DNA of 58,886 nucleotides, from IMG/VR virus record IMGVR_UViG_3300008116_004701, positions 1 through 58,886 of that record. One strand, given 5' to 3'. Shown piece after piece: positions 24,706-51,878 of the stretch. Source of the DNA: a virus. Taxonomy: Duplodnaviria > Caudoviricetes. Below the pieces are notes generated by a model, which was given only the letters and a program-made list of their open reading frames with translations, was not told the origin of the DNA and did no database searches. The position numbers and the translations under genes are program-made. Position 1 is the stretch's first letter. Each line of letters starts with the position of its first letter.

Positions 24706-27700
24706 TTATTTACCACAAATTAACAAATATTTTTCATACATATCTTCATCCATTTCTCTTGTTGCAAGGAATTCATCAGAGAAAGCACGATTAAATGCTT
24801 CCCAATCATCAGGTGAAGGTGTGAATGTATCTTTTTCTTGGAAACCAGAAGGTAGAGACTTTTTCTTAACAGCTGGAGATATTTTACTTGTATCTAGTTT
24901 ATTAGTAAAAGGCTGAGCAGGTGTTTGAATACTTCTAAGCTCGTCTCTTACTTCCATAAGTAATTTTGGAAACTCTTTGCCCCATTTAGTTTTATCTTGA
25001 GTATGTGTAAGAGTAGCGTTACCTGTAGCAAGTAGTTTAGCTAGAGCATCTGGATTTTGTTCAAAAGATTCTTTTAGTAATTCTTTCATAATTCTAGAAG
25101 AATTTTTATCCCATTCTTTTGTATCTAATCCTGTAATTGTTCTGCCTAATGCTTTAGCTTTTGCTCCTGTAACATTCATTAATTCTAGTACAATAGGTAA
25201 TCTATCTCCTATACCCATAGATGAATATCTAAATTTAGCAGCTTGAAATGCTCCTTCTACTGTATTAAAAGTACCATGGATAGTCACGACACTTTTAAAA
25301 GGCCTAACAGCAAAATTACTTAACTCAGCATTTTCTCCTGTACCTGCATAAATATTAATAGTTGTGTTAGATAGTATACTAGGTTCTGTAGTAGTATCAA
25401 ATCCTGTTAGAGTTGCTTTTATTCCTGGAGCAGGCGCAAAAAATACATCGTCTTGTAGTGATTTTCTTTGTGTAGAATCGATCAAATCAATAGTTTCTTT
25501 AACTGCAGAAGCTAAAGCTGTACCTGCTTTAATATCTATACCTAAAGAATTTAAGAGTTGTAACAACAAATCTTTGAGTTTATCCATCATAGACTTGTCT
25601 TCTACTTTTACTTTATTTAACCATGCCTGGAATCCTTGGTCAGTAAGCGCCATAGTAACAAACTCTGTAAGTTTGATAGCACCGTAGTATTTACTTAAAC
25701 CTTTATCTGTAGTAAAAGGAGTTCTTGTAGCAGGGTCTGCTTTTGCCCAAGTATTAAATTTTTCTATAAATTCATTTAACTCATTACGATTTCCTTGAGT
25801 TTCTAAATAATTAATATAACTTAACTGTAAAGCTTTTAGGTTATCAATAATCTTTACTTGTTCAGCAGTAAGTTTATCCATTCTACCTGCCTGATAATCT
25901 CTAATCGCCTCTCCTGTAAAAGTATGAATTAGTTCATGTGCTACAGTATTAGCAAGATCGTTAACTGTTTTATGATTTTGATGATTTAAATTTATAAACA
26001 AAGTCTTAGTTGCATATTCATATCTGCCTCGAACACCAGCTTCTTTTACAAACTCAAATTTAAATCCTTCTGGAAATATTAAACTATGAAGTTTTTCTAA
26101 AAGTAATTTGTTAGTAGTACTAACAGTAGGATCGGATAGTAGTCTATCAACTAGGTCATCAAATGCTCGTTTACCTGACATGTTTGTATCTACACCTAGT
26201 TGATTAGGTGGAGTTTGTTGTACAGGATTGTTTACAATATTAGGATCAAATGTCTTAGTAGGTTTAACAAGAACACCTTGGATTGTGGTACCTGGAGCAA
26301 CTACGCTTGGTTTGTTGTCTTTAATCTTAGGTTGATAAACAGGAACAACTACAGCATTCTGTGAGTTATACTGTGTAAAACCATAAGTACCTTGTAGTAC
26401 AGGAATACGGTTGTATTTACGAGTAGATTCATCAAACTCGTATAATGCGTACTTAGATTTATTATTCTTATTATCATCTCTGATAGTTAAGAAATGCGTC
26501 TGTGTCTCAGTCATATCTCCAGATACAGGATCTACAACACTTACAAAATTTCTTTCTAATGCTTCTTTATCTAACTCAAATGATTCTGGAACTGTACTTA
26601 CTTTACCTTTTAAGTCGCCAAGAGATATTGTTTTAGCAAGGTTTGGATTATTTTGAATGTATTGACGAGTAAAACTACTAGGCATGCTATAAATAGGGTT
26701 GCCTAAATCGTCAACTATTCCACCAAAAGTACGTTCAAAATCAAAAGGAATTCCTTGCAGATAGTTGCCAAACCCTAAAGTTTTTAAGTATCCAATAGGA
26801 ATATAGCGCATGTATTGTTTAGAACCTTGTATACCGCCTTCTAAGAAGGCCGCTGTAATAAGATCTTGTGCAAGAAGTCTAGTAGTATAATCAATACCGT
26901 TAAAGTTTCCTAGAGGAACGTTTTTAGAAAGCAAATATGCAAAGCCTGCATAAATGCTGCGCTCGTCAAAATTAGCAGCATTACTAGACTCAAAGTTAAT
27001 TCTTGAAACATCTCCATTACTGTTAAAGTTAAACGTAAGTTTATTTAAGAATTGATTGTTTTGATACCAAGGTTGAGTAGATAACTCTTGTAGTATAGTA
27101 GCAAGACTTTTGTTTTCACCTTCTTTATCGATAAATAATCTTGCTCTTTCTTCATCTGGATTGCCTAAAAATAAACTACTTCCTTCATTAGAATAAAAGT
27201 AAGATTTAATATCTTGGAAAATTTCTGTTTGTACATCGGATAACTTAGTGCTGCTAGCAATTACTTTATCTCCACTAGGAATATGTTTAAGAACTTCTTT
27301 AAATATTGTTTGAAATCCGTCTGTATTATACGGAAAATATGGAGCGTAAATATTATTAGCAAACATAGTTCCGTATTTAGAAGCATATCCACTAATAGTT
27401 GTTGGTACAAACTCTTTATTTTCTATTGTACCTAGTAGACTATTTGCATTAAATACATTAGATAAAGGAAGGTTTTCAATCTGAGTTACTTTAGTATTAG
27501 TTTCTAACAAAGATTTGGGAATGCCTTTAGATGCAGTATTAATAGCTGATTGTATTTTCTTAATTTCTTCACCTATTCCATCAAGTTTTAAAAACTTATT
27601 TAAAATCATTAACTGTCCTATATTATAGTCAGTTGATTTAGTAGGATTAAATTTAGTCTCTTTTAGGTTTTCTAAAAGTTGTTCTCCAGACATGTCACCT

Positions 27701-29700
27701 AATTTTTCATAGGCTAACATTTGACTTTCAGAAGCTTCTGTTAATTTATTTTCAGGGTCGTATTTTTTACGAAGCTCCTGCATCAATTCTGCTTGGAAGT
27801 TAGCATTATATTTACTAGTAGTAGATCGATTAGCTTTTATTCGATCTAAGTACTCCCAAATGATGTCTTGAGTAATAAGCCCTGCTATATCTGTTTCTTC
27901 AAACCCAAACATTACCATAGCACGTATTGCGCCAAAAGTATCTGAGTTAATATTTAGTTTATCAAGAATCTGCTCTTTTTCGTTATCTACTGCAGTAGAC
28001 TGTAGTGCTCGAATAATTGCTGATTTAAATTTAAGAGACTCTTTTTCTTCTTTAGTAAGCTCACGTTTTTCTGCTTTAGCTCTATTAATAAGAGCTTGAG
28101 ATTTAAGAGTATATGGATTAGACATATCTCCTTTAGAAACAAACTCTCCAAATGTTGCTACAGGCATATTAGCTTCTGCTAACTCTTGTGCAGTAGGAAT
28201 ACGTGGATTCATTGGTGTACCAAATAATTCTACATACGCTTCGTCATTAAGATTTTGATAAACTAAATCTTTGCCTTGTGCATTAGCATTAAAAGTAGAA
28301 TCAAGAGAAAATGATCCTACACCATCTTTACCTGCTGTTGCATTAATGTATTTAGTACGTTGATAAATATCAGAAAGAATAGTAACAGGTGTAGGGTTTA
28401 CACCCTTCTCGGAACGTATTTTATTTACTTCTGCAGCTAGACCTGTAAATTCTCCAGAACCATCAAGTGCAATAATACTAGCAATCACTTCAGGGTTAGT
28501 ACTAGTCATTACATCTAAATGGATATCTAAGATCTTATTCTGTTTAGCTGCTACATAAGAACGATTTAAGATCGATAAGCGATCTATTAATGTTTCGATT
28601 TGACCAGGCTCTAGAAATTTTTTATCCAAACTTCTTGTGATAATTTCATTAGCTTGCGACGCCAAAGTAGAATCAATATCATCTTTTTCTTCATTACTGT
28701 CTATAGTATTCTTAATGTAATCTCTTAGTATTTTATTTTCTTCTTTTGAAAGCTTTAATCTTTCTTGTATATCGTTTAAAGTTTCTTTAGCAATCTTAAT
28801 TTGCGCTTCTATTTTTTTAGGATCAGATAGAAAGTTAGTATATAGCTTGCCATTTTGATAAAAATGATTGTACATGTATGTGTACAATTTATCAACGTCA
28901 AAGTCGGACCCCATTTGTTTAGTAAAATCTCTAGGCGCTAAGACTAAATCCCCCATTGCTTCTGGTAAAAATCCTACTATTTCTACAGCAGCCATAGAGT
29001 TACGGCTTTGAGTAGGAATACGGAATCCAAATAGTTGAAGTAGTTTTTCAGGAACTTTAGTAGTGTCTAATAAACCATCTTTTGTTAAAAATTCCTCTAT
29101 GTTCAAGATTTCTCCACGCTCATTGCGAAACTTAAATGGAATCATAATTTGAGCAGGTAACATTTTACCTGTTGCAGGATCTACACGCAAAGGTTGTAAC
29201 CCTTTAGTAGCATCAAATTTATTTGTGAATACGATATCAGAATTCTTTAAATCTCCTGCTGCAGCATCACCTTCTTTAATTTTAATCCCTTCTTCAGAGC
29301 CGAGTACATAAGAATTACCCGTAAACTTTTGTTTAACTACTTTATTACTAACGAGTGACGTAAGTAAACTTTCAAATTTATCTGCATAAGGAGATGCCCA
29401 CAAAGGAATTTTAAAGTTTTGTTTGTCTTCTGTTAATTCTAAAGCAGACAACATGTTAGGCGCATATCCTTGGCGAGTTTTGATTTCTTGAGCAAGAATC
29501 TCAGCAAGTTTAACTGCGGGAATTGTAGTTCTTTCTATGATTTTTTTGTCAGCAACTTTAACTTTAGAGCTATCTTTTTTAAATCCTGGAAGACTCAGCT
29601 TACCGTTAGCAACTAAAGTATCTAAAAGGCCTTCATTTAAAAGTGCCTTAAATTCATTTTCAGAGACCCAACGACCCCCTACAAAGTACTGACAAGCCAT
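24706..29700 (-). CDS. Virion RNA polymerase catalytic (beta'-like) half fused to zincin and NADAR domains, 1664 aa
   Basis: FRIPTQ..NS and GSDFDVDKL (DxDxD at 28891-28905, compare phi14:2 gp66 DFDID), AVDNEK. Zincin: AHELIH...EFV. NADAR: LSNF...TVEGAFQAAK...AKALGR...W...M...F.QNP...LLATG. Confidence 0.9.
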   Translation of the reverse strand: MACQYFVGGRWVSENEFKALLNEGLLDTLVANGKLSLPGFKKDSSKVKVADKKIIERTTIPAVKLAEILAQEIKTRQGYAPNMLSALELTEDKQNFKIPLWASPYADKFESLLTSLVSNKVVKQKFTGNSYVLGSEEGIKIKEGDAAAGDLKNSDIVFTNKFDATKGLQPLRVDPATGKMLPAQIMIPFKFRNERGEILNIEEFLTKDGLLDTTKVPEKLLQLFGFRIPTQSRNSMAAVEIVGFLPEAMGDLVLAPRDFTKQMGSDFDVDKLYTYMYNHFYQNGKLYTNFLSDPKKIEAQIKIAKETLNDIQERLKLSKEENKILRDYIKNTIDSNEEKDDIDSTLASQANEIITRSLDKKFLEPGQIETLIDRLSILNRSYVAAKQNKILDIHLDVMTSTNPEVIASIIALDGSGEFTGLAAEVNKIRSEKGVNPTPVTILSDIYQRTKYINATAGKDGVGSFSLDSTFNANAQGKDLVYQNLNDEAYVELFGTPMNPRIPTAQELAEANMPVATFGEFVSKGDMSNPYTLKSQALINRAKAEKRELTKEEKESLKFKSAIIRALQSTAVDNEKEQILDKLNINSDTFGAIRAMVMFGFEETDIAGLITQDIIWEYLDRIKANRSTTSKYNANFQAELMQELRKKYDPENKLTEASESQMLAYEKLGDMSGEQLLENLKETKFNPTKSTDYNIGQLMILNKFLKLDGIGEEIKKIQSAINTASKGIPKSLLETNTKVTQIENLPLSNVFNANSLLGTIENKEFVPTTISGYASKYGTMFANNIYAPYFPYNTDGFQTIFKEVLKHIPSGDKVIASSTKLSDVQTEIFQDIKSYFYSNEGSSLFLGNPDEERARLFIDKEGENKSLATILQELSTQPWYQNNQFLNKLTFNFNSNGDVSRINFESSNAANFDERSIYAGFAYLLSKNVPLGNFNGIDYTTRLLAQDLITAAFLEGGIQGSKQYMRYIPIGYLKTLGFGNYLQGIPFDFERTFGGIVDDLGNPIYSMPSSFTRQYIQNNPNLAKTISLGDLKGKVSTVPESFELDKEALERNFVSVVDPVSGDMTETQTHFLTIRDDNKNNKSKYALYEFDESTRKYNRIPVLQGTYGFTQYNSQNAVVVPVYQPKIKDNKPSVVAPGTTIQGVLVKPTKTFDPNIVNNPVQQTPPNQLGVDTNMSGKRAFDDLVDRLLSDPTVSTTNKLLLEKLHSLIFPEGFKFEFVKEAGVRGRYEYATKTLFINLNHQNHKTVNDLANTVAHELIHTFTGEAIRDYQAGRMDKLTAEQVKIIDNLKALQLSYINYLETQGNRNELNEFIEKFNTWAKADPATRTPFTTDKGLSKYYGAIKLTEFVTMALTDQGFQAWLNKVKVEDKSMMDKLKDLLLQLLNSLGIDIKAGTALASAVKETIDLIDSTQRKSLQDDVFFAPAPGIKATLTGFDTTTEPSILSNTTINIYAGTGENAELSNFAVRPFKSVVTIHGTFNTVEGAFQAAKFRYSSMGIGDRLPIVLELMNVTGAKAKALGRTITGLDTKEWDKNSSRIMKELLKESFEQNPDALAKLLATGNATLTHTQDKTKWGKEFPKLLMEVRDELRSIQTPAQPFTNKLDTSKISPAVKKKSLPSGFQEKDTFTPSPDDWEAFNRAFSDEFLATREMDEDMYEKYLLICGK

Positions 29701-29705
29701 AGCAA

Positions 29706-30182
29706 TTATTTATTAAGTAGTTCTTGATCGAACAACAACATGTTATCAGTAAGCGCTAAACGAGCAAGTAAATCCATGTACTCACCTACTGCTCCTACTT
29801 GATGAGTAGTAAAGTCTTGTAGTAACAATCTTACTTTCAGAGAAAGATCCATTTTGCAAGCAGATTCTTCGTATGCCATAAGCAAATCACGCTCCATTTC
29901 GTATGCCATCTCTAAAGCACCTTTAACATCTGTGCAATCACACTTCACAGCATCTAAAGCATCAGTAGAAAGTTCTCCGCCTAAATCGTTGCAGAACTTT
30001 TCGATTTTATTATAATGATCTCGTTCTCCTAAAGACTCTTCAGTAAATAATTTTTCAGCGCCAAAGTAACCATTAGTCTTCATACGATTTGCTAAATGCA
30101 AATACGTATGAGAAGCAGTAAGCTCTAGACGGCCAAATTTATTGAGTTCTTTTTGTTCAATATCGGTAAGTAGCTTTTCCAT
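29706..30182 (-). CDS. Ferritin-like protein
   Basis: ELTASHTY, GY.G...F..ES..ERDH..K, ALE.E, Q..A and FDQ.L have ferritin spacing; 158 aa. Confidence 0.88.
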   Translation of the reverse strand: MEKLLTDIEQKELNKFGRLELTASHTYLHLANRMKTNGYFGAEKLFTEESLGERDHYNKIEKFCNDLGGELSTDALDAVKCDCTDVKGALEMAYEMERDLLMAYEESACKMDLSLKVRLLLQDFTTHQVGAVGEYMDLLARLALTDNMLLFDQELLNK

Positions 30183-40908: not shown

Positions 40909-43900
40909 TTATGAATTTTTACCTTTATTTGCTCTACGTGCTGCAGCTGCTGCATTTAGTTTATCTGCAATACTTATATATCTAAAATTACCTGCATAGT
41001 CAGGAGCTATTGTTTGCAAATATTTTTCTTGTAAATCTGTGCTAGATAATCCTTGAGCAATTTCACTAGCTTGTGTTAAACCTGCAGCTAACATATTTTG
41101 TCTAGCAGATAAAGCTTGATCATTATACTGTTGAATAGCTAAATCTTGTGTCATATTATTAGACTCTACTTGAGCATTAAATTTATCTGCTTCCATTTTT
41201 TGAGCCTTGTCAAAGTTTTCTTTTTGTGCATAAATATCACGAATAGCTTGTTGACGCATATTAGCCATGTTGCCTAATGTAGCTAAGTAACTTCCTGCAC
41301 CAGGTGCTGCATTTTTAGCAGCTTGCATTGCAGTACCATAAGCACTGCGGACTGCTGCTAATTGCGGATCTACGTTCATTTCATAAGGAGAAATTTTAGC
41401 ACGAGACTGATAGTCGCTAACATCTAATTGATTTACTTTACCAAAAAGACCACGACCAATATTATAAAGTGCAGGTAATGCAGAAACTCCCGCTAAAATA
41501 GGATTTTGTTCTATAGATTCTAAACCTGTTTTTTTATCCATTTTAGTGAGCATTTTTCGTAATTCAGATGCCCACTCATCATCACTCATTCCTTCAGGTT
41601 TTACTAGACCATTACTTGCAGCAGCATTCATAATAGCTTCGTCTTCTTGTGCAAGTTTTTCTACTTCTAATAAATCAGTATCATCTCCTTCTTCAGCAAC
41701 AACTTCAGTAGTAGATACATCAATAGGGTTACTTAAACTAGCATAATGTTCTTCTAAAGCTGCTTTTGCCATTTCAATATCTTGACTGTCAAACTTTCCA
41801 TCTCCATCTGCATCAGCTCCTTCTGGCATAAAACTTTGAAGGATTATAGGATTATTTAATGCTTCCTCAATTGTAAGACTAACGGGAACTCCTTGAATAT
41901 TAAATGTAGCTTTTGGTCCAGTAATAGGATCTAAAGAACTTCCTTCTGCAAACTGATTAGTAAACATACCAGTAGTAGGTGCTCCTAAATAGCCTCCCTG
42001 TGCCATGAAATTTCCTGCGACATTCATCGCTTTAGTAATAAATGGGTTTTGAGGAGCGTTCATTAATTTAGCAGCAGCTTTACTTCCTTCAAGAGCTCCT
42101 TCTGGGATTACTTTTTTATCTGGAGAACCACCAAAGAATGTACCGTACATTGAACCTAATTGTCCTACACCTTGTGCTACTTTATCTGTTTTTTCTCCTG
42201 TACCTGGCAAAGCAGCAACTCCGCTAGCTAAACCTTCTACACCTTCACTAATAGCTGATTTAGTAGTAGCACCACCCGTTAGTACTGCAGAACCAAGAGC
42301 ACCTGCTGCATTACCAAAACCTCTTGCAGCATCTAGACGACCTGCCTGACGTTCATCAACATCTCCTATTTGAGATAGTTTTTCGTATCCTTTGTCTGTA
42401 AGATTGTCAGTAGTACCAAAAGTAGCTGCATCTAGTACACCTTCTCCGATACCATAAAGCGCAGAACCGATACCACGTAGGGCCATCATGCCTCCACCTG
42501 CACCGTACATATGACCGCCCATGTTATACATCTTACCCCCCATGCTCATTATACCTTGTTGTTGCATTTGTTGCATCATTGCTGGGTCTATTTCTTGTGG
42601 CATTCCTGCTGGAGGAGCCATTTGTTGTTGCTGCTGCATTGCCATCTCGTCTGCCATTGCTTGTTGGTCCGCCATAGCTGCTTGATCTACTATTTGTAAA
42701 TCAGGATACTTAGATTGCATTTCTGCAACAGCTGCTTGTTTTTCAGACTCTTTTTGCTGCTCTTGCGCTTGCATTAAGTTTTCTAAATCACGTTGAATAG
42801 CAACTTGTTCAATAGTATCATTTTCACGACGAGAATTTGGACGATTTAATTTCTTAGAAATATCAGCAAATGTTTTTCCTATATCTCCTTTAGGCAAATC
42901 GTATAGAGTAGCAGTTTCTTTAGATACTTTAATCTCATCTGAAAAAATATAATCTGCTGCATTAAGTTTAGTTTCACCTTGTTCTACAAGATTTAATTTA
43001 CCATCTTGTGCAAATCCTTGTGGAATGCCTCCTAGCGGATTTATTTCATGGGAACCTCCTTCATTAAATTCAGTAAGTTGTCCGCCATCAGCAAACGCTC
43101 GACCTCCCATGGAGTACATATGGCCTCCCATAGCATGTTTAACATTATGTGCTTTACCACCAATACTAACCTTTTGGTTACCTGGTGTTCTTTCAAATTC
43201 TCCTGTAGCATGTCCATATGCTAACCATGCTTTGTATGCGGCTGGTGATTTAAAGTTCATAGCGCCTCCTTGTTTAAAATTATTTTCTCCCAATCCTTCT
43301 GGATCGTTAGGGTCATATATAATAGGTTCTACATTAGAACCTGATTTTGTTGATGGTACATAAATATCTTCTGCGTTTTTATTCCAACGTTTATCTATTG
43401 GGCTAGCATTTACTTTAGGACCAAAATCTCCATAAGGATCTCCTCCTTGTATTTGTAAATTTTCTTCGCCGCCTTTATCTGCTCTTCCTAAGAATGAAGT
43501 AAGAGGCGACATATTAATGTCTGGCATATTAATATGAGGAGTCTCTATTTGTTGTAAGGGAAATCTAATTCCTACTTCACCCGAAACATGAGGGCGAAAC
43601 ATAGTTCCTAATGTTTTATCCATAGGTCCCGCACCTGTAGTATTAGTACTATTATTGCTGTTTTGATTAGGATCATAGTTAGGGTCTTGTCCTATAGTAT
43701 TAGAAATATTAGCAGCATTTTTAGATGCAGCCCCAAACCCACCTGTTAAAGCAGCTTTACCATAAAAAGACATAGGAAAATCCTTAAATGCTTTAGGTCT
43801 ATATTCTCCTTCAGCACGAATTCCCCAACCAAGTTTTGCTCCTTTTGTTGAATTTAAAGTAAAACCTGTATAAGGTTCGATAATGCCTGATGGTCTACCT

Positions 43901-44619
43901 GCTTTTACTAAACCATTTCGATAAGGATTTCCAAAAGGAAATACACTTCCTACTTCTCCATGCAATCCTAAACCTGTTGACGGAGCATACTCTCCACCAA
44001 ATTCAATACGTGGCATAGCGCTTTCAAAAATAGCGCCGCCTCCAACTTCTTGTCCTCCTTTAACAACTTTACCTTGCCAACCTATTTTACCTCCTGCTAT
44101 AATATTTTGAGCATTAGGAGCTCCTCCGAGTAAAGCATCTTTGTTATTAGTAATATTTGTGATACTATTCTGATAAGCCTGTTCTTCAGGACTTAATGTA
44201 GTATTAAATGGTATACTTGGATTATACTGTTGCCCTGCATAGGCACTAGCATAAAATCCTGGAGCCTTTTTGCCTAAACCAGAATCTGTCTCAATACCTG
44301 CAATATAACCAGGCTTAAAGTTTCCTACTAATGCATTAGTATAAAAGGGACTAGCATAAACATTAGCTGTTGGATTTTTCTTATAAAATTTTTCCATAAG
44401 ATCCTCAATAGGACCCCCTTCAGCGTAAGTTTGAATATTAGAAGCTTTAAAACTACTCATCTTACCACCATGACTCATTTGATTTTTAATCTTTTTTTCT
44501 TGTGCTAACATTTCTTTTGTAGGTTTCTTTCCAGAACCTGCATTAGCACGAATATTATCCCATAGCCCTCGTGGACTGTATGAGCCGTCAGCACGTTTAA
44601 TAAGATCTTTTTTAGCCAT
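40909..44619 (-). CDS. Modular cargo protein with multiple Phi-xx-GG motifs, 1236 aa
   Basis: GGSHEINPLGG..VEQGET..DYIFSD domain, Q/M-rich linkers, Gly/Ala helices, no Cys. Confidence 0.75.
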   Translation of the reverse strand: MAKKDLIKRADGSYSPRGLWDNIRANAGSGKKPTKEMLAQEKKIKNQMSHGGKMSSFKASNIQTYAEGGPIEDLMEKFYKKNPTANVYASPFYTNALVGNFKPGYIAGIETDSGLGKKAPGFYASAYAGQQYNPSIPFNTTLSPEEQAYQNSITNITNNKDALLGGAPNAQNIIAGGKIGWQGKVVKGGQEVGGGAIFESAMPRIEFGGEYAPSTGLGLHGEVGSVFPFGNPYRNGLVKAGRPSGIIEPYTGFTLNSTKGAKLGWGIRAEGEYRPKAFKDFPMSFYGKAALTGGFGAASKNAANISNTIGQDPNYDPNQNSNNSTNTTGAGPMDKTLGTMFRPHVSGEVGIRFPLQQIETPHINMPDINMSPLTSFLGRADKGGEENLQIQGGDPYGDFGPKVNASPIDKRWNKNAEDIYVPSTKSGSNVEPIIYDPNDPEGLGENNFKQGGAMNFKSPAAYKAWLAYGHATGEFERTPGNQKVSIGGKAHNVKHAMGGHMYSMGGRAFADGGQLTEFNEGGSHEINPLGGIPQGFAQDGKLNLVEQGETKLNAADYIFSDEIKVSKETATLYDLPKGDIGKTFADISKKLNRPNSRRENDTIEQVAIQRDLENLMQAQEQQKESEKQAAVAEMQSKYPDLQIVDQAAMADQQAMADEMAMQQQQQMAPPAGMPQEIDPAMMQQMQQQGIMSMGGKMYNMGGHMYGAGGGMMALRGIGSALYGIGEGVLDAATFGTTDNLTDKGYEKLSQIGDVDERQAGRLDAARGFGNAAGALGSAVLTGGATTKSAISEGVEGLASGVAALPGTGEKTDKVAQGVGQLGSMYGTFFGGSPDKKVIPEGALEGSKAAAKLMNAPQNPFITKAMNVAGNFMAQGGYLGAPTTGMFTNQFAEGSSLDPITGPKATFNIQGVPVSLTIEEALNNPIILQSFMPEGADADGDGKFDSQDIEMAKAALEEHYASLSNPIDVSTTEVVAEEGDDTDLLEVEKLAQEDEAIMNAAASNGLVKPEGMSDDEWASELRKMLTKMDKKTGLESIEQNPILAGVSALPALYNIGRGLFGKVNQLDVSDYQSRAKISPYEMNVDPQLAAVRSAYGTAMQAAKNAAPGAGSYLATLGNMANMRQQAIRDIYAQKENFDKAQKMEADKFNAQVESNNMTQDLAIQQYNDQALSARQNMLAAGLTQASEIAQGLSSTDLQEKYLQTIAPDYAGNFRYISIADKLNAAAAARRANKGKNS

Positions 44620-44640: not shown

Positions 44641-47571
44641 TTAACAGTTTTTATTAAGTTCACCACCAAATAAATAGGGGTTAGCAATACTAAAATAATA
44701 TTTAGGTACACTTGGTTGATGCATTCTATTATGATAATTAATCATATTAGGAATATTCTTTTTAGGTATTTTATTTCCTTTAAGGTCTACTATTTTATCA
44801 AATCTAGAAATTGAAGGAAAGTATTTATTAGGCATTTTTGTAAATCCTTTATATAATACACCTTTTTGTATATCATCGACATTACCAAGATATCCACGTT
44901 CTACATCACTTGCTACTCGATCTAATTTAAACTGTAGGTCTTTTGGTAATATAACTTCCATTTCTTGTGGAAAATGTTGTATATTACTTGCATTAGGATA
45001 CATATAACTTTGTCCTGCAGGAGCATTAATTACATAATCTAAATTTTCAGCTCTTTGAGTAAATCCTGTTAAAGGAGCTTCAAATCCTAAAGTTGTTTCT
45101 GGTTTAGCTTTTATTACACTAGTACTAGTAAAAGATTTAGGAACAAAAAGATCTCCTTCCTTTAAATCAGAAAATTTTAAATCTTGTAAAGTTTCTCCAT
45201 TTCTAATAACAAATCCTTCATTATTTATATCAAAATTTTTAGTTCCTCTAATTAAACTTTGAGGTTGTTGAAATTTATTTTTTAAAATACTTTGCTCTAA
45301 TATAGGAGCAATTTTTTCTTGATAAAAAGGAGCAACTTTTTCTGCTTCTCTCGTATTAATTAGTTGATCGTATCCTCTAGCATAAGCATCTAATACTAGC
45401 TCTTCTTTTTTAGTTAAATCTAATGTTGGTTTATGAGTTTGTAAAAAATCTGAATGTATTTCTCTGCTAAGCGCTGGCATATATTCGCTTTCAGCATTTC
45501 TTACTGTTTCTCTTGTAGGAATAAACTCTAACTCTTTTAACTTTCCGTACAATCCTACATCTTTAGGATTAAGTTGATAAGTAGGAATATTAAATTGTTT
45601 AGAAAATTCATCTGCGTATTTATTAACTAAAAATTGCTCTTCTGCTTTAGGAATAATAAATCGTTCATTAGTAGTAATTGCTTTTTCTTGTGCTTCTTTC
45701 CAATCTTTTAAACTAATTGCTGGAGCTTCTGGATCAAATAACTGTTTGCTTAATTTAGCAGGATTTCCTCCAATTGGAGAACTTGCTCCATAAACAGTAA
45801 CACCAGAAGCATCTGTTAAATCTCCATATTCATCAATAGTGCCTACTATTTTTTTAGCAGCAGGAGCATCTACTAAAGTTTTGCTATTAACAAATGTTGG
45901 AGCATTCATTGATTTAATAATGTTACTAGCATTTTTTATTGGTATTCCTGCTCCCGCAAAATCTAAGCCTGTAAGTCCTGTTTTTAATGCTGCTTCTTTC
46001 CAATCCATGTTACCTGCAGCAACATCTTGCCAATCTTGATATCTGTTGTCAATTTGAGTAGCTCCATGAACAAGTCCTGCAGCATTTGCTACACCTCCAA
46101 GATTTACTCCTGCACCTAAAGGAATACTTGCAGCAGCTCCTAAAACTTCTGCAGCTATAGGCGCACCTATTATTGCTTGAGGTACCCAATTTGCAGCTTG
46201 TGCTGCTTGAGGCTTTAACGAACCGTCAGGCATATATAAACCTGAAGTGCCTGATTGTTTATGAACATTAGCAACAAATTGTTTTGCTGCTAAATCTTGC
46301 TCCCCTTGTTGCTGTGCTTTATTCCACACTGCTTGATTCATAACAGGTTTAGGTGCTCCTTGTACTGGTGCATTGTATACAGTTGCATATTTATTTAATA
46401 GTGCAGCACGTTCTCCTGTTGGATCATTAATAGGTACATATTGATTTCCTGTAGAAGCATTACTAATAGCCCAACCTTCTGGTGTTCTTTGGTAATAAGA
46501 TCCTGGTCGTTTAGAGTATGTGTAGATAGGACCCCCATCATCATAATGTTCTCTAGCATCAGAACCATATTCACTAGGTTCAAAATGTATAGTACCTCCT
46601 TGTCCGTATTCTTCTGTAGTCTCCCCTTCTCTTTGAATATATGCACTATTTCTAGTTTCAATTCCTGGGATAGGAATATATCTTCTTTTACCAGGTTTAA
46701 TTAAATCTCCACCATGTCCAGGTTGTCTAAACCTTGGAAGTCTATAAGGAATTCTATTGGCATCCCAGTCTATATATCTTTCTGTTTGATTGACCCATTC
46801 TGCACCTGGATCAGGGGTAGCATACATAGAAGTCTCATCAATATTATATTGCGGCATAATACCAGGATATTCTGCTGGTGGTATAGGGGGTGTAGGTGGG
46901 ACTAGCGGAGGACCTGGAGGAATAGGTGTTGGAATAGGTATAAGTTGTTCTGTAATAGGTGTAGGTTGTATTACTTCTTTTGTAATTAACGGAGTTGGTT
47001 TAATAATTGTTTTATTATTAACCTTACTTTTTGGTTTATTTGGAGTAGGTTCAACAAACTTAACACGCTGGACAGGACGGTCAAAACTAAATCTTGGAAG
47101 TACATTTTGTCCATATGTTCTAAAATAAGGAGTTGGACGAGTTGGTTTGTTAACTACATCTTGTAAAAGAGGATTGTTTTTTCTACTTTCCCAATATGCA
47201 CGCTGTGCATCAAGTTCGTCCCATGCTTGAAGACCATCTGCAGGAGAATTATGTCTGCTTCTTATACGGCCTGTTGCGTTGTCATCTGCTAATCTTTTAG
47301 CAGCAGTAAATTCATTATTAAGTTTAAAAATAGTCAGACTATCATCATAAGCTGCTTTTCTGTAAGCATACTCTTTAGGATCAGAAGTAACAAATGGTTC
47401 TACTCTTTGTGGTTTTTTATTTTTTTTATTTTTATCGCGGTCACGATTATATTCACTAATAGTTGAATCTAGTGTACCTCCTTGAGCAAAAGGCAAAGCA
47501 GTAGTGTCTCTAAAGATTGGTGTGCCTTTTGACTGATAATAAGTAGGCAGTATTTTTGGAGTCTTTTTCAT
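44641..47571 (-). CDS. Cargo protein with C-terminal ADP-ribosyltransferase domain (VIP2/Alt-like, R-S-ExE), 976 aa
   Basis: Y...Y..IN, LIRG, FTSTS, INAPAG, EMEVILP; preceded by a Gly/Ala hydrophobic hairpin and a Pro-rich linker. Confidence 0.85.
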   Translation of the reverse strand: MKKTPKILPTYYQSKGTPIFRDTTALPFAQGGTLDSTISEYNRDRDKNKKNKKPQRVEPFVTSDPKEYAYRKAAYDDSLTIFKLNNEFTAAKRLADDNATGRIRSRHNSPADGLQAWDELDAQRAYWESRKNNPLLQDVVNKPTRPTPYFRTYGQNVLPRFSFDRPVQRVKFVEPTPNKPKSKVNNKTIIKPTPLITKEVIQPTPITEQLIPIPTPIPPGPPLVPPTPPIPPAEYPGIMPQYNIDETSMYATPDPGAEWVNQTERYIDWDANRIPYRLPRFRQPGHGGDLIKPGKRRYIPIPGIETRNSAYIQREGETTEEYGQGGTIHFEPSEYGSDAREHYDDGGPIYTYSKRPGSYYQRTPEGWAISNASTGNQYVPINDPTGERAALLNKYATVYNAPVQGAPKPVMNQAVWNKAQQQGEQDLAAKQFVANVHKQSGTSGLYMPDGSLKPQAAQAANWVPQAIIGAPIAAEVLGAAASIPLGAGVNLGGVANAAGLVHGATQIDNRYQDWQDVAAGNMDWKEAALKTGLTGLDFAGAGIPIKNASNIIKSMNAPTFVNSKTLVDAPAAKKIVGTIDEYGDLTDASGVTVYGASSPIGGNPAKLSKQLFDPEAPAISLKDWKEAQEKAITTNERFIIPKAEEQFLVNKYADEFSKQFNIPTYQLNPKDVGLYGKLKELEFIPTRETVRNAESEYMPALSREIHSDFLQTHKPTLDLTKKEELVLDAYARGYDQLINTREAEKVAPFYQEKIAPILEQSILKNKFQQPQSLIRGTKNFDINNEGFVIRNGETLQDLKFSDLKEGDLFVPKSFTSTSVIKAKPETTLGFEAPLTGFTQRAENLDYVINAPAGQSYMYPNASNIQHFPQEMEVILPKDLQFKLDRVASDVERGYLGNVDDIQKGVLYKGFTKMPNKYFPSISRFDKIVDLKGNKIPKKNIPNMINYHNRMHQPSVPKYYFSIANPYLFGGELNKNC

Positions 47572-50500
47572 TAGAAGATTTGATAATCAAAGTACGACAC
47601 TAATTTATTCATGATAAGTTCTTTATCATAAGAATTATCAAAATATAAAGTTACAATAAAATAAGTACTGCGTAGACGTCCTTGTCGAACATTACTGTTT
47701 TGATCTCTAGGAATTTTTAAGCGCCATTTATCAAACTTGCGTTTAAATCTTTCAGGACTAAATGGTACTATATCTGTATCTTGATATTGGTTATAAACTC
47801 TAAAACCTGTTAATGTTTGTGTACGATCTATAATCTTATTGTTGTCTCTAACTATAGAATTAAATTCTAAAGTTCTTAAAACTTTATTTACATCAGCATC
47901 AGGATTAATAACTAACGTTAATTCTGTAGAAGCTAAACGATTATAGAATACACCCCAAGATCCTTTATTACTTGTGAATACTTTTTTATTAGCAAGTGGA
48001 TCAGGACTCATTAAAATGTTACCGTTATTAATCCAAATCGGTGGAGTAGTAGTATATCTTGAAGAAAACTGTTGTGCTAATTCGTCATACACAAGTGTGT
48101 TAGAATTAAATACTTGATTTTCCGTAGCTTCTATACTATTTGCATAAAGTAAGTTAACGTTTGTTCCTGTATCATTACCTGTTGTAAACTCATTAACTAC
48201 ATAGTAGTAAACCTCATTATATAATATAATGTCTTCCATTGCATAAGAAGTATTACGCAAAAGACTTTTAATAAAGTTTTTACTTAAAAAAGTAAATAAT
48301 ACTTCATCATTAATTACATCTTTTGTGATATGTACTCCGTATCCTTTAATAGGATTGTCTCCATTATTTTCTTTACGTAAGAATACTCCAGCAGGTAAAT
48401 TTTGTAACCAACTGTGCATTCCTTTTACTTCAGAAATAGGAAGACTTAATGGACTACCTTCTCCAGGTGATTGTAATGTAAATATTTTTCTATGAAAAGC
48501 ATCAAAAAAGTAAATACCCATTTCTGTAGCATCAACTGCCCATTGATGAATACATCCATGTACTTTAGAATGATAAATATGTTTACCAAATCCTAATCCT
48601 GTACCAAGTTGTGTCGGTACTCCATCTGCTGTAGTAGTTACAGCAGCACGATTAATTGTATAAGTACCTATTCCTTTATCTTGAATAAAAAATACTAAAT
48701 CCTTCCAGTTTAATATTTTATTGATAGGACCATAATCATCAATATCATAAAAGTTATTAGCTCCAAACTTTGTCCAAGAGTCGATAACTTCTTCATTAAT
48801 TTTTACATTAGACAAATACGCCCTAATATCATTAGCACCACTATAGATTAAATTTTGTGGTTTTATAAAAAATCCAACATCATCTTTTTCTGCAGAGTAA
48901 ACAAAATTGTATTGATACATGTCTAATACTTTAGCATAAGCTGCTTCTGCATTATTAGTTTCTTGTCTAAGAATTACGCTGCGTTCTGTATCAAATTCAT
49001 ATTTAACATTAGTACGAATATTGGCGCCGTAATCTAAGTCTATATTAATAGTAGACTCTATAGGAAATGCTTGAGTCTGTGCTTTGTTCTTACGGTACAA
49101 ATCATTAGCAGCATAAAAATCTTTATTAAACTCTATTAATCCTGTAGAAATAACTGCCATATTAATAAATGTATCTCCTCCAAAAACTACAGGAGAAGTA
49201 TTTGCTACATCAATTAATGGAGATGCAGGAATAAATTTATTAGACTCTAAACTATTTAATGTATAACCTCCATATACTTCAAGCTTTGGCAATAAAGTAT
49301 CTATGATAGGATAATAATTTTCATAATCTGTTAATGGAGCATATGTAGAAGAATTTAACGGCTTGATAAAAGATGGTGCTGCAAAGTAATCTACAGATGG
49401 TGGAGTAGGTACAGGATTACCAGTAAAAAAGTCTACTGTAATCCTGCCTATTTTTCCTGCTATACTAGAACCTGATTTATAAAACTCAGGTCGAGTGTTA
49501 TTAATTCCTTGCTGTGGCCTATTAGGATTTACTTGTGGATCTGCTGTGTCTTCATAGTCATCCATACACCAATAATTACGCATATAATAGCTACCAAATA
49601 AAGGCGTTACTTTTTGTGTATAATCACTAGTGTCTTCCATGCGGAATAGTTGGTTAATTTGCCACTTTCTAATATTTTGTACAGAATTAAAGTTTACAGG
49701 AAATACTTTTCTAAATTGCTTTCTTGTGTCTATACAATTATCTGAAAGTCCTATTGCACTGTAATCTTCTGAATCTGTATATGAAACAAATGTTCCTAAA
49801 GCCCCTGTAACAAGTAAACATGGGTTACTTCCTATATTAGTAATACTAGATATGTTACTGCTGTTAAAAGAGACATCGGGGGAATAAAAGTTTACATAAT
49901 TTCCTAATCTTTCAAAATTTGCAAATTGTGGTACATAACTAGTGTCACCAAATACAGCAAAAGATCCATTATCGTAAATAGTATAAGGTCCAGAACCTTC
50001 TGGATAAAAAGGATATAAGTGTAGCACATTACCGTTTCCATCTACTTGTAAATCAAAATCTGATCCTGATGGCGGTGATATTACTGGATTATAATAAAAG
50101 TTTTTAAGAATCCCTTGAGACACTCTTCTAGTATCTGCTATATCTCTTTTAAGTCTTACTATTTGATAGCTTTCTACTTCGTTAAGTAAACTAGGACAAG
50201 TAGAAAAATCAAGAGTAAATTTAATACCCATAGCATAACCGTAAGTTGTATCACCTGTTCCAGGAATACTTAATGGCCAGTGAGTAGTGCCTGAGTTATT
50301 AGTAACACTATCTCTTTCAGAAATATCAGGAAATTTGATATCTCCAATATATTCAACAAAACTAGCTTCTCCTTTTTTAGTATAAAATACTATTCCAAAT
50401 CTATAAGTTTCTCCACGTTTATAACCACGCAGTAATCCTGAAATAAAGGGCGATGCATAGTTAGGAAAAGTAGTATTAGCGTAATCTCCATATCCATCAT

Positions 50501-51878
50501 TTAGATTATGTGCTGGAGAATCTGGAGTACTAGGTACTTGAGTTACACCTGGTAATCCAAAACCACTCATAGGAGTAGAATCTATAGTATATTGTTCTAA
50601 GTGAAAAGTATAAGAAATGTTTGGGCCTTGTCCTCCTAAACGAAGTCCGTCAGACTTATATCTATATTGACTGTTTGTATGCCAAGTATTATTCCAGTGT
50701 GCATCAGAGTTATAGTCTACATTAAAAGCATTTAATAAATCGTTAGTTGCAGTACCTGGTGTATAAGGAGGTATTGGACTACCACCGTTATATTTATATC
50801 GTCTTGTTTTTGCATCAAATGTTTCACCTGGTGCTAATAAATCTTGAATACTTACTAAAGATTCTTTAATATTAGCAATGACTAGAGACCCATCTTTTTG
50901 AGTAATAGTTTTAGGCGTTTTAAACTGATAGTTTTTAGTAATAAAATCAAATAGTTCTACATCATAAGAAGAGCTTTCTGTTCCTGTATAAATAATAGAG
51001 ATTGTATTTGCACCATCAAGAGTAACTTGCTCTATACTTGTTACTACTGGTGCAGCAGTTACAGAAGATTTGTAAATAGATAAAAATTCTATTTTATAAA
51101 AATCTTGATAGTTTGTAGTATCTATCTTAATAGTAATAGCTTTACCTGTATTAATAGGTGTTGGGTCTCCATTGTACGTATAAGAATTACCACTCTCTGC
51201 ATCAGATACAATGTGTACTATATTACTTGGAGGGGCTACTAAAGTTTCTTTTCCGTCAGAAGTAATAAGCTTGTAGCTAATTTGATAAGTGCCACCAATT
51301 AATCCTCCACCGCTAGTTATACCTGTAATTAAAGGTTGTGTAAATATTACATCAGGAAAAATATCTATTAATCCTACTGGAGTTGTAGCAAGATTAACAT
51401 CTTTAGTATTTACGGATCTAAAAAAATTATTATAGTCTGTCCAATAGATTCTTTGAATATTCTCAGACTCATAACGACCTAATGCTTCAATTGGCCACTC
51501 TTTTTTAAAATTAAGATTTGCACTGTAATACAATAATGTAGGACCTGAAGTAATAGTACTATCAGCGGGGTTATATTGTACATCATAAATCCAGCCTTTA
51601 GTACCAGAATCATCTGCAACAAATAATATAATTCTAGTACGAATTGTAGCATAACCAATAATTACTGGATTAGTTGCTGTCCATGTTCCTGGAGGATCAC
51701 TGTCTAAAGGCAAACTAAAAGCATATTCGTTGCCTTTAATATTAGTAAATCCTCCTAATGATTCTCCTTGAGTTGTAGTAATTCGAACATTTAATGCATC
51801 TATATAAAAAGTCGGCGCTATACTATCGTAGGCCGTATCTTTATTCATCCCTTGGTAACTATTTGCGTGTTGCTTCAT
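47571..51878 (-). CDS. Tail stabilisation / muzzle-like protein
   Basis: 1435 aa, beta-rich: GMNKD, YIDALNVRI, IYWTD, GYKRGETYRFGIVFY, FGGDTFI, YGPI; position after the ring proteins. Confidence 0.85.
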   Translation of the reverse strand: MKQHANSYQGMNKDTAYDSIAPTFYIDALNVRITTTQGESLGGFTNIKGNEYAFSLPLDSDPPGTWTATNPVIIGYATIRTRIILFVADDSGTKGWIYDVQYNPADSTITSGPTLLYYSANLNFKKEWPIEALGRYESENIQRIYWTDYNNFFRSVNTKDVNLATTPVGLIDIFPDVIFTQPLITGITSGGGLIGGTYQISYKLITSDGKETLVAPPSNIVHIVSDAESGNSYTYNGDPTPINTGKAITIKIDTTNYQDFYKIEFLSIYKSSVTAAPVVTSIEQVTLDGANTISIIYTGTESSSYDVELFDFITKNYQFKTPKTITQKDGSLVIANIKESLVSIQDLLAPGETFDAKTRRYKYNGGSPIPPYTPGTATNDLLNAFNVDYNSDAHWNNTWHTNSQYRYKSDGLRLGGQGPNISYTFHLEQYTIDSTPMSGFGLPGVTQVPSTPDSPAHNLNDGYGDYANTTFPNYASPFISGLLRGYKRGETYRFGIVFYTKKGEASFVEYIGDIKFPDISERDSVTNNSGTTHWPLSIPGTGDTTYGYAMGIKFTLDFSTCPSLLNEVESYQIVRLKRDIADTRRVSQGILKNFYYNPVISPPSGSDFDLQVDGNGNVLHLYPFYPEGSGPYTIYDNGSFAVFGDTSYVPQFANFERLGNYVNFYSPDVSFNSSNISSITNIGSNPCLLVTGALGTFVSYTDSEDYSAIGLSDNCIDTRKQFRKVFPVNFNSVQNIRKWQINQLFRMEDTSDYTQKVTPLFGSYYMRNYWCMDDYEDTADPQVNPNRPQQGINNTRPEFYKSGSSIAGKIGRITVDFFTGNPVPTPPSVDYFAAPSFIKPLNSSTYAPLTDYENYYPIIDTLLPKLEVYGGYTLNSLESNKFIPASPLIDVANTSPVVFGGDTFINMAVISTGLIEFNKDFYAANDLYRKNKAQTQAFPIESTINIDLDYGANIRTNVKYEFDTERSVILRQETNNAEAAYAKVLDMYQYNFVYSAEKDDVGFFIKPQNLIYSGANDIRAYLSNVKINEEVIDSWTKFGANNFYDIDDYGPINKILNWKDLVFFIQDKGIGTYTINRAAVTTTADGVPTQLGTGLGFGKHIYHSKVHGCIHQWAVDATEMGIYFFDAFHRKIFTLQSPGEGSPLSLPISEVKGMHSWLQNLPAGVFLRKENNGDNPIKGYGVHITKDVINDEVLFTFLSKNFIKSLLRNTSYAMEDIILYNEVYYYVVNEFTTGNDTGTNVNLLYANSIEATENQVFNSNTLVYDELAQQFSSRYTTTPPIWINNGNILMSPDPLANKKVFTSNKGSWGVFYNRLASTELTLVINPDADVNKVLRTLEFNSIVRDNNKIIDRTQTLTGFRVYNQYQDTDIVPFSPERFKRKFDKWRLKIPRDQNSNVRQGRLRSTYFIVTLYFDNSYDKELIMNKLVSYFDYQIF

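Follow-up and report, generated by a model that had tools for sequence, protein, structure and literature searches.

A NADAR domain carried in an exchangeable slot of a predicted virion RNA polymerase subunit of a crAss-like phage

Introduction

Every NADAR enzyme tested hydrolyzes guanine-linked ADP-ribose on DNA, according to PMC11125620, and NADARs have also been reported to remove ADP-ribose from guanosine in RNA (PMC11833690) and, for some of them, to hydrolyze cytidine-ADP-ribose (PMC12945103). As described in PMC11543638, de-ADP-ribosylation of guanine needs a catalytic Glu and a phosphate-binding Lys located seven residues apart (E43/K50 in Phytophthora and E88/K95 in Escherichia coli C7). 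A third catalytic site is reported to be Glu in YbiA, Asp in BC4488/DarG1-type enzymes, and His in phage gp30.3-type enzymes (PMC11543638, PMC11125620). The NADARs of T4, T5-like Bas32, and Bas60 (i.e., three unrelated phage groups) are reported to restore growth against DarTG1 (10.1101/2024.07.11.602962). Regarding virion RNA polymerases, gp66 of phi14:2 has been described as a component of the virion that passes into the host, where it transcribes the early genes (10.1101/2020.03.07.982082), and the polymerase-associated proteins of crAss001 have been found in virions by mass spectrometry, according to PMC10172136. Here, we analyzed a viral record of 58,886 nucleotides (58.9 kb; IMG/VR IMGVR_UViG_3300008116_004701; ~44% complete), the whole of which is referred to as the window, and we describe a NADAR domain (24931..25362, minus strand) inserted in a giant protein that is predicted to be a subunit of the virion RNA polymerase.

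The window's virus is a crAss-like phage. In the Bacteroidota of the gut and the sea, few phages are as abundant as these, and little is known of how they get through the first minutes of an infection.

Results

The original prediction, made from the sequence alone, had placed a NADAR domain at 24931-25360, near the C terminus of an injected RNA polymerase and flanked by linkers, and had proposed a NADAR HMM search as a check. In our analysis, the domain comprises residues 1447 to 1590 of the protein encoded by gene P0001 (from 'INIYAG' to 'ELRS'; 24931..25362, minus strand), as recognized by Pfam, phmmer, profile, and model comparisons. The Pfam family NADAR (PF08719; formerly DUF1768) matched residues 1456 to 1576 above its gathering cutoff (E = 6.2e-13; 49.7 bits; cutoff, 35.1), and a six-frame search of the record located the NADAR match at 24973-25335 on the minus strand (53.4 bits). 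Only two PDB sequences were matched by phmmer, namely, E. coli YbiA (2b3w; 3e-7) and a Phytophthora NADAR (8bau; 0.0016). A profile built from 20 members of the subfamily matched the same two entries at 4.9e-14 and 1.3e-10, respectively; its four other matches (E = 0.011 to 0.045) were coronavirus spike chains, which look like chance.

An AlphaFold2 model of residues 1430 to 1600, built on the 20-member alignment, had a mean pLDDT of 89.0 and a pTM of 0.82, with disordered ends. Foldseek searches of the PDB with this model retrieved only YbiA 2b3w (TM score, 0.68) and the Phytophthora NADAR 8bau (0.59) at E ≤ 0.001. The third match was the DarT1-associated NADAR of Geobacter lovleyi (8bat; E = 0.027; probability, 0.97; TM score, 0.48), and all matches beyond the top three had probabilities of <0.1. 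As modeled, the domain has a YbiA-like alpha+beta NADAR fold. The predicted location and identity of the domain were thus borne out by the Pfam score, the model, and the ranking of YbiA/NADAR folds in first place. Only 74 residues of P0001 follow the domain, in agreement with its description as near the C terminus, and the predicted linkers are supported by the low-confidence ends of the model (pLDDT of <50 for model residues 1 to 14 and ~58 for the last block) and by Pro/Thr/Ser-rich flanks that vary in length among relatives.

The motif 'TVEGAFQAAK' (25234..25263, minus strand) contains Glu1482 (25255-25257) and Lys1489 (25234-25236), which correspond to E43/K50 of the Phytophthora NADAR and E88/K95 of the E. 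coli C7 NADAR. Both residues are invariant in 20/20 subfamily members and also across the alignment with the T5-like YbiA and T4 gp30.3. The motif 'LTHTQD' (24994..25011, minus strand) contains His1566 (25003-25005), at the putative third catalytic site, and Asp1569, and these two residues are likewise invariant in all 20 members. His1566 aligns with the His of T4 gp30.3 ('LKHS'), and the T5-like protein shows 'IEGN'; this placement comes from the sequence alignment, and HMMER alignments to YbiA shift the third catalytic site by one residue. Altogether, 34 positions are invariant among the 20 members, which are 47 to 67% identical to the window's domain. Judging from residue conservation, the NADAR active site looks intact, and the domain is probably an intact, active NADAR-type ADP-ribosyl-base glycohydrolase.

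The domain was also compared with the NADARs associated with DarT1. The third catalytic site contains no Asp (in 'LTHTQD', none lies two residues ahead of the position aligned with Glu; the DarG1 reference is D171 of the E. coli C7 NADAR, according to PMC11543638). In addition, no basic N-terminal extension, described in the same source as the proposed single-stranded DNA (ssDNA) groove of DarT1-associated NADARs, precedes the fold, which begins at strand 'INIY' after a Thr/Pro/Ser linker. Structural likeness to the DarG1-type 8bat was the weakest of the three NADAR/YbiA matches. PADLOC returned only PDC-M42C (1.2e-7), with no DarG model at E ≤ 1. Matches to NCBIfam models TIGR02464 (50.7 versus 73.7 bits) and NF053876 (21.1 versus 240) were below cutoff, as was that of Pfam PF08010 (Phage_30_3) to the domain (17.9 versus 36 bits). 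No DarT (PF14487) match was obtained in the 58.9-kb record, which is ~44% complete. The original prediction had correctly cited the removal of ADP-ribose from DarT1-modified guanine by NADARs (PMC11543638), but its choice of DarT1 as the specific enemy is unsupported: the third-site Asp, the N-terminal DNA-binding extension, and a PADLOC DarG match are all missing.

The carrier of the domain, the 1664-residue gene P0001 (24706..29700, minus strand), includes the DFDxD half of the polymerase, which is followed by an HExxH region of zincin-like type, the NADAR cassette, and finally a C-terminal tail that is conserved. The sequence DFDVD at residues 266 to 270 (28891..28905, minus strand) is the motif with which the catalytic double-psi beta-barrel binds metal; it is unchanged in all of the aligned orthologues (6/6), and both the DFDxD motif and its gp66 counterpart (1361-DFDID-1365) are described in 10.1101/2020.03.07.982082. 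In tblastn searches, residues 64 to 292 matched the 'catalytic RNA polymerase subunit' g066 of phi14:2 at 5e-11, and P0001 also matched KP06_gp44 of p-crAssphage and crAss001-like 'putative RNA polymerase' genes. The zincin-like motif HELIH (residues 1255 to 1259; 25924..25938, minus strand) has weak family support (Pfam SprT-like, E = 0.033, 14.5 bits, cutoff of 25.6; phrog_3768, 2.2e-6 over residues 1207 to 1263), and its His1255, Glu1256, and His1259 are invariant in 6/6 orthologues.

The remainder of the polymerase core lies in the upstream 2702-residue gene P0003 (30182..38290, minus strand), in its C-terminal third. The family phrog_16227 ('virion structural protein'; 4401 positions) matched residues 94 to 1386 of P0001 at 6.1e-68 and P0003 at 4.4e-70, the latter at profile positions up to 2991 of 4401, such that the two proteins match successive parts of the family. 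Similarly, the last 900 residues of P0003 matched the stretch of g066 located just before that of P0001 (tblastn, 4e-15), and both polymerase parts are found in a single 4287-residue coding sequence (CDS) in Flavobacterium phage FpV4, whose match to P0001 stops at residue 1365, ahead of the cassette. Because the end of P0003 and P0001 match successive parts of g066, and because these parts form one CDS in FpV4, the core is, by homology, divided between two genes, with a ferritin-like open reading frame (ORF) in between, and P0001 is taken as the catalytic half, with the DFDxD motif, of a crAss-type virion RNA polymerase. The fusion to an RNA polymerase proposed in the original prediction therefore stands with regard to the catalytic subunit (DFDVD; g066 match at 5e-11) but not with regard to a whole polymerase, given that the core is split with the upstream gene. 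Virion presence and ejection are known only for phi14:2 gp66 and crAss001 gp47/49/50, and by homology with these proteins the polymerase subunit of the window's phage would be delivered in the same manner.

The NADAR lies in an insertion cassette that, with its linkers, spans residues ~1436 to 1600 (approximately 24901..25395, minus strand). It is followed by a conserved C-terminal tail (24709..24900, minus strand; ending in '..DEDMYEKYLLICGK', with Cys1662 at 24715-24717), which is kept with or without the cassette. The cassette is gone from the relative P0010, which shows 99% identity to P0001 across the length that both have, with a clean ~150-residue gap corresponding exactly to the NADAR and its linkers. 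In the protein alignment, P0010, P0012, and P0026 read 'GFDTTTEP-STQTP-KLDTSK' where P0001 reads 'GFDTTTEPS[NADAR]IQTPAQPFTNKLDTSK'. The NADAR-less P0012 is a relative at 92% identity.

A search with residues 1380 to 1664 yielded 517 proteins (E ≤ 1e-3) among 5650 candidates of 915 to 2912 residues. Fourteen were clear orthologues, defined by a '..CGK' end and a DFDxD motif at residues 200 to 400, and their slot contents were taken from precomputed Pfam annotations. In this set, which is biased towards NADAR by the query, the slot was empty in three proteins (P0010, P0012, and P0026), contained a NADAR only in two (P0005 and P0009), and contained a NADAR plus an SF1 helicase in nine. Among five complete orthologues from IMG/VR contigs, one (98% identical in its N terminus) had a NADAR only, and the other four had a helicase without a NADAR. 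DNA alignment with a helicase-bearing relative revealed conserved flanks around unrelated slot contents. Farther away, the distant giant proteins P0045 and P0113 carry an AlkB-type dioxygenase, a NADAR, and an SF1 helicase, while P0049 carries the same NADAR subfamily beside DUF7831 and a cpYpsA/SLOG domain. The slot, located after the zincin-like region and ahead of the conserved tail, is an exchangeable cassette site. An examination of the slot in relatives had been proposed in the original prediction, and the orthologues proved to contain nothing, a NADAR, a NADAR with a helicase, or a helicase alone. Given that the domain is internal and that the tail is conserved in all orthologues, the full-length chain carries the NADAR.

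Two further observations concern the slot. In two orthologues (L026, 10001-17182, and L027, 10001-17437), a stretch of ~500 to 600 residues without a Pfam match separates the HExxH motif (~1261-1284) from the helicase (from ~1854-1938), and these stretches may hold further cassette domains. At the cassette borders in the window, no convincing direct repeats were found, only short imperfect two-copy matches. The best of these (23 nucleotides; 83%; 25338-25360 versus 25518-25540) joins the first NADAR strand 'INIYAGT' and the upstream 'IDIKAGT'; it is probably due to chance, although it could be a microhomology used at cassette insertion.

Regarding the distribution of the subfamily, a comparison of the domain with 1.84 billion cluster representatives gave 1093 matches at E ≤ 1e-3, of which 569 reached E ≤ 1e-10 and 221 reached E ≤ 1e-30. 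Many of these were proteins of 2000 to 6900 residues with the NADAR at the N terminus, in the middle, or at the C terminus. A polymerase-barrel profile also matched 86 of 256 NADAR-bearing proteins (NADAR downstream of the barrel in 66 and upstream in 20), which is an undercount because the profile was built from close relatives only. A survey of 185,579 prokaryote species, represented by one genome each, gave 8 loci of the subfamily, all in metagenome-assembled genomes (MAGs) and some on contigs of 86 to 115 kb. Within 50,697 GenBank phage records, identity of >50% was seen only in cr126_1; the next nearest proteins in cultured phages were the YbiA-like proteins of T5-like phages (Markadamsvirinae; 38% identity over 81% of the domain), followed by NADARs of Streptomyces phages. 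The NADAR subfamily is essentially phage restricted. The YbiA of the T5-like phage slur09 is presumably the orthologue of the Bas32 NADAR.

The polymerase genes are located in a muzzle-cargo-polymerase block, with the crAss_MUZ and crAss_CARG1 genes upstream on the same strand. The order on the minus strand is the muzzle gene (47571..51878; crAss_MUZ, 1.3e-137), a 976-residue protein (44641..47571), cargo protein 1 (1236 residues; 40909..44619; crAss_CARG1, 6.4e-30), an 859-residue protein, and then the giants of 2702, 1664, and 1335 residues. The last of these, the downstream gene P0002 (20692..24699, minus strand), matched no Pfam or PHROG family and is, by position, a third polymerase-associated cargo protein; this order is kept in relatives. 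A 158-residue ferritin/rubrerythrin-like ORF (29706..30182, minus strand; Pfam Ferritin, 3.4e-12; Rubrerythrin, 2.4e-6) sits exactly between the two polymerase-core genes and holds 4 of the few Cys residues in the block. A 158-residue ORF is found at the same place in two relatives (L004 and L005).

The 976-residue cargo protein, encoded on the minus strand between the muzzle (47571..51878) and crAss_CARG1 (40909..44619) genes, has a C-terminal ADP-ribosyltransferase domain of the R/S-T-S/E-x-E type (Pfam ADPrib_exo_Tox, 1.3e-6, residues 718 to 889), and alignment to C3-like transferases revealed its RG, STS, and EmE motifs. This protein is probably an Alt-like enzyme that is injected. Over its first ~36 residues it is conserved in 5/5 relatives; the remainder varies in length (625 to 1826 residues), and the transferase is present in one of the five. 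The transferase domain is a second swappable, ADP-ribose-related cassette in the virion module. It occurs in the one close NADAR-bearing relative and is missing from all four NADAR-less relatives with contig coverage of this position; when viral contigs were scanned for the transferase domain, the same close relative was the only one detected.

The Cys residues of the block are few and largely terminal. The 2702-residue protein has one (residue 2701; '..KNCD'), the 1664-residue protein has two (residues 3 and 1662; 'MAC..' and '..ICGK'), the 1335-residue protein has one (residue 5; 'MAIAC..'), and the 976-residue transferase protein has one (the last residue); no Cys is present in the cargo proteins of 1236 and 859 residues. 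This pattern is kept in 15/15 orthologues and on all seven related viral contigs (L023-L029), down to 62% identity, with one extra internal Cys in two large upstream proteins. A Cys within the last six residues was found in 221 of 254 NADAR-bearing database proteins, compared with an expectation of ~1% (mean Cys content, 0.17%). The terminal Cys residues fit a head-to-tail disulfide tethering of consecutive ejected proteins, including the split polymerase halves, and a solved precedent has been reported in cyanophage A4 (gp27 Cys1715 to gp26 Cys5; PMC12002296).

Discussion

Because its active site looks intact, because it is positioned on a particle-borne polymerase, and because its slot partners are nucleic acid enzymes, we favor the reading that the NADAR domain is a pre-made eraser of base-linked ADP-ribose that arrives with the polymerase. 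We assign this reading a probability of roughly 0.55, and we infer three of its elements, namely, that the domain is packaged, that it is active, and that it acts on the template or transcript. In the proposed sequence of events, the NADAR, inserted with flexible linkers into the cassette slot of the catalytic virion polymerase subunit, would enter the cell together with the polymerase. Its targets would then be ADP-ribosylated guanines (possibly cytosines) in the phage DNA as it comes in or in the first transcripts, from which it would strip the ADP-ribose where early transcription starts. The domain would thus serve as an accessory counter-defense or repair module, outside the polymerase mechanism.

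Several points weigh against this reading. The upstream zincin-like region in the same chain could cut the NADAR off, before or after packaging. In one study, T4 AdfN and YbiA hydrolyzed guanine-ADP-ribose in vitro but failed to rescue DarT1 toxicity (PMC11125620); therefore, the role of a NADAR in vivo does not follow from its chemistry in vitro. The domain is a bare YbiA-like core, without the basic N-terminal extension of DarT1-associated NADARs, and the 99%-identical relative P0010 manages without the domain. In P0049, the NADAR adjoins cpYpsA/SLOG, a context that points to soluble ADP-ribose derivatives according to PMC9503650. Finally, 170 of the 256 NADAR proteins had no barrel-profile match, although 97 of these are shorter than 1500 residues and are possibly fragments.

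A more specific proposal, which we regard as tentative, is that the tethered NADAR, along with the SF1 helicase and AlkB of relatives, would act in cis as a template cleaner at the transcription bubble, removing adducts that stall the first transcription. In that case, the domain would be directed not against DarT1 but against an undescribed DNA/RNA ADP-ribosyltransferase defense of Bacteroidota that targets guanine or cytosine.

It is also conceivable, if doubtful, that the domain degrades soluble ADP-ribose signals or by-products of host immunity at the onset of infection (e.g., cyclic ADP-ribose variants, ADPr-1''-phosphate, or NAD-cap remnants). Iyer et al. 2022 argue in this sense for most phage NADAR, Macro, and SLOG domains, often packaged (PMC9503650). 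The fusion of the same subfamily to cpYpsA/SLOG and DUF7831 in P0049 and the bare YbiA-like core without a DNA-binding extension are consistent with that role, as is the best NCBIfam match, a riboflavin-intermediate N-glycosidase model that scored below its cutoff (50.7 versus 73.7 bits). However, the slot partners act on nucleic acids (i.e., the SF1 helicase in close orthologues and the AlkB-type base-repair dioxygenase farther away), a polymerase tether is hard to explain for diffusible substrates, and the NADARs reported on so far all act on base-linked ADP-ribose in DNA or RNA (PMC11125620, PMC11833690).

An action specifically against DarTG1, in which the domain would strip DarT1-made ADP-ribose from guanines of the ssDNA template in the manner of T4 AdfN, is unlikely. 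This role would accord with the reported reversal of DarT1 modification by NADARs (PMC11543638), with the counteraction of DarTG1 by phage NADARs of three lineages (10.1101/2024.07.11.602962), and with the His at the putative third catalytic site, as in gp30.3/AdfN. Given that the nearest relatives in culture are phages of Flavobacterium, Cellulophaga, and Bacteroides, 401 genomes from the phylum of a Bacteroidota MAG were sampled on the host side, and 34 of them had a member of the DarT family. However, each of the best 8 DarT loci of this sample had a Macro-domain neighbor (8/8), which marks them as the thymine-directed DarTG2, and NADARs are reported not to reverse thymidine ADP-ribosylation (PMC11125620). 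None of the 34 DarT-bearing genomes had a Pfam NADAR beside DarT (four had one elsewhere). The same was true in a control, the phylum of a Pseudomonadales MAG (DarT in 22 of 401 genomes; adjacent NADAR in 0/22), and because the control never detected a DarTG1 locus, the host-side negative says little on DarT1. The lack of a PADLOC DarG model at E ≤ 1 and the Phage_30_3 score of 17.9 bits (cutoff, 36) also argue against this role.

The NADAR might instead be cleaved off during maturation (e.g., by the zincin-like region) or be a decaying passenger with no role in entry. According to 10.1101/2020.03.07.982082, these proteins presumably undergo cleavage when they occur in polyprotein form, and the cassette is dispensable in close relatives. 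Such an explanation is improbable when set against a subfamily that is widespread and strongly conserved (34 invariant positions among 20 members, including the active site) and against the conservation of the tail beyond the NADAR, because of which the reading frame through the cassette is considered to be under selection.

The idea that the NADAR removes off-target ADP-ribose put on phage DNA, RNA, or the polymerase by the co-packaged 976-residue transferase is the least probable of all: an R/STS/ExE transferase domain does lie on another cargo-block protein of the window, and in T4 the genes for the NADAR gp30.3 and for the Alt transferase, which is packaged, lie within ~5 kb of each other, but the co-occurrence described above represents one lineage (the window and a 98 to 99% identical contig), an ExE motif typically belongs to protein transferases that modify arginine, and no NADAR is known to reverse arginine ADP-ribosylation.

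If the pre-made eraser reading is true, the phage would bring a ready-made ADP-ribose eraser on the very enzyme that must act before phage gene expression. A slot filled by a helicase or a base-repair dioxygenase in relatives would offer a testable picture of an exchangeable entry tool kit, and the findings would suggest that the attachment of ADP-ribose to bases in nucleic acid is a defense that crAss-like phages commonly meet. Phages that are nearly identical but differ in the presence of the cassette provide natural controls, and the 99%-identical pairs would make the undescribed defense of the template-cleaner proposal findable.

Of the described systems, T4 gp30.3/AdfN is a phage NADAR with the catalytic Glu and Lys and a third-site His that aligns with the window's His1566 ('LKHS' versus 'LTHT' in the window), and the same chemistry is expected of both, i.e., removal of base-linked ADP-ribose at the start of infection. 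AdfN differs in being a free-standing 152-residue early-gene product made postinfection, whereas the window's NADAR is internal to a giant virion protein; sequence likeness between the two is weak (Phage_30_3, 17.9 versus 36 bits; hhalign probability, 75% over 55 columns). The T5-like YbiA NADARs (Bas32 group) likewise have the bare core fold and lack the DarG1 extension, but they are free standing among replication genes and have Glu ('IEGN') at the third site, where His is aligned in the window's domain.

With respect to the carrier, phi14:2 gp66 and crAss001 gp47-gp49-gp50 have a homologous DFDxD barrel, a block located after the muzzle and cargo genes, and a zincin-like module near the polymerase. 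The polymerase core of gp66 is contained in one chain, whereas in the window it is split over two genes; phi14:2 also had no listed match to a NADAR-only query, and the Cellulophaga matches fall in the polymerase core. The phi14:2 gp66 virion RNA polymerase corresponds to PDB entry 6VR4.

A further counterpart is a 2402-residue 'DUF1768 domain-containing protein' of the uncultured crAss-like phage cr126_1 (Kolpuevirus hominis), which has the same NADAR subfamily (52.9% identity), matches the polymerase barrel (1e-4), and adjoins a 'putative RNA-polymerase subunit'. Because this protein carries both elements, a NADAR-polymerase fusion is already present in GenBank under a generic name; it differs from P0001 in that the NADAR is N-terminal rather than in the C-terminal slot.

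More broadly, the window's protein resembles the polyvalent virion proteins described by Iyer et al. 2017 (PMC5512222), which are giant proteins with a zincin-like peptidase and assorted enzymes predicted for entry. It fits this pattern with its HELIH region (weak family support) and a slot varying among NADAR, helicase, and AlkB. In N4-like virion polymerases, a fusion to zincin domains is always present (PMC5512222), and frequent packaging of NADAR, Macro, and Nudix domains is stated elsewhere (PMC9503650). The latter source calls phage NADARs typically stand-alone, and the window's carrier is a two-barrel polymerase, not one of the N4 type. The text of PMC5512222 contains neither 'NADAR' nor 'crAss', and that of PMC9503650 does not contain 'crAss'. 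Among the papers listed by literature searches, none was found to join crAss-like phages with NADAR, DUF1768, or YbiA, although supplements may list such proteins; PMC10607447 lists a NADAR family protein from another phage group. The concept of packaged NADARs and that of polyvalent virion proteins are already published, and the gain here lies in the carrier, the cassette behavior, and the scale. Beyond the described systems, the new elements are the near-isogenic presence/absence pair, the NADAR-only form of the slot, and a gp30.3-like His in a YbiA-like core.

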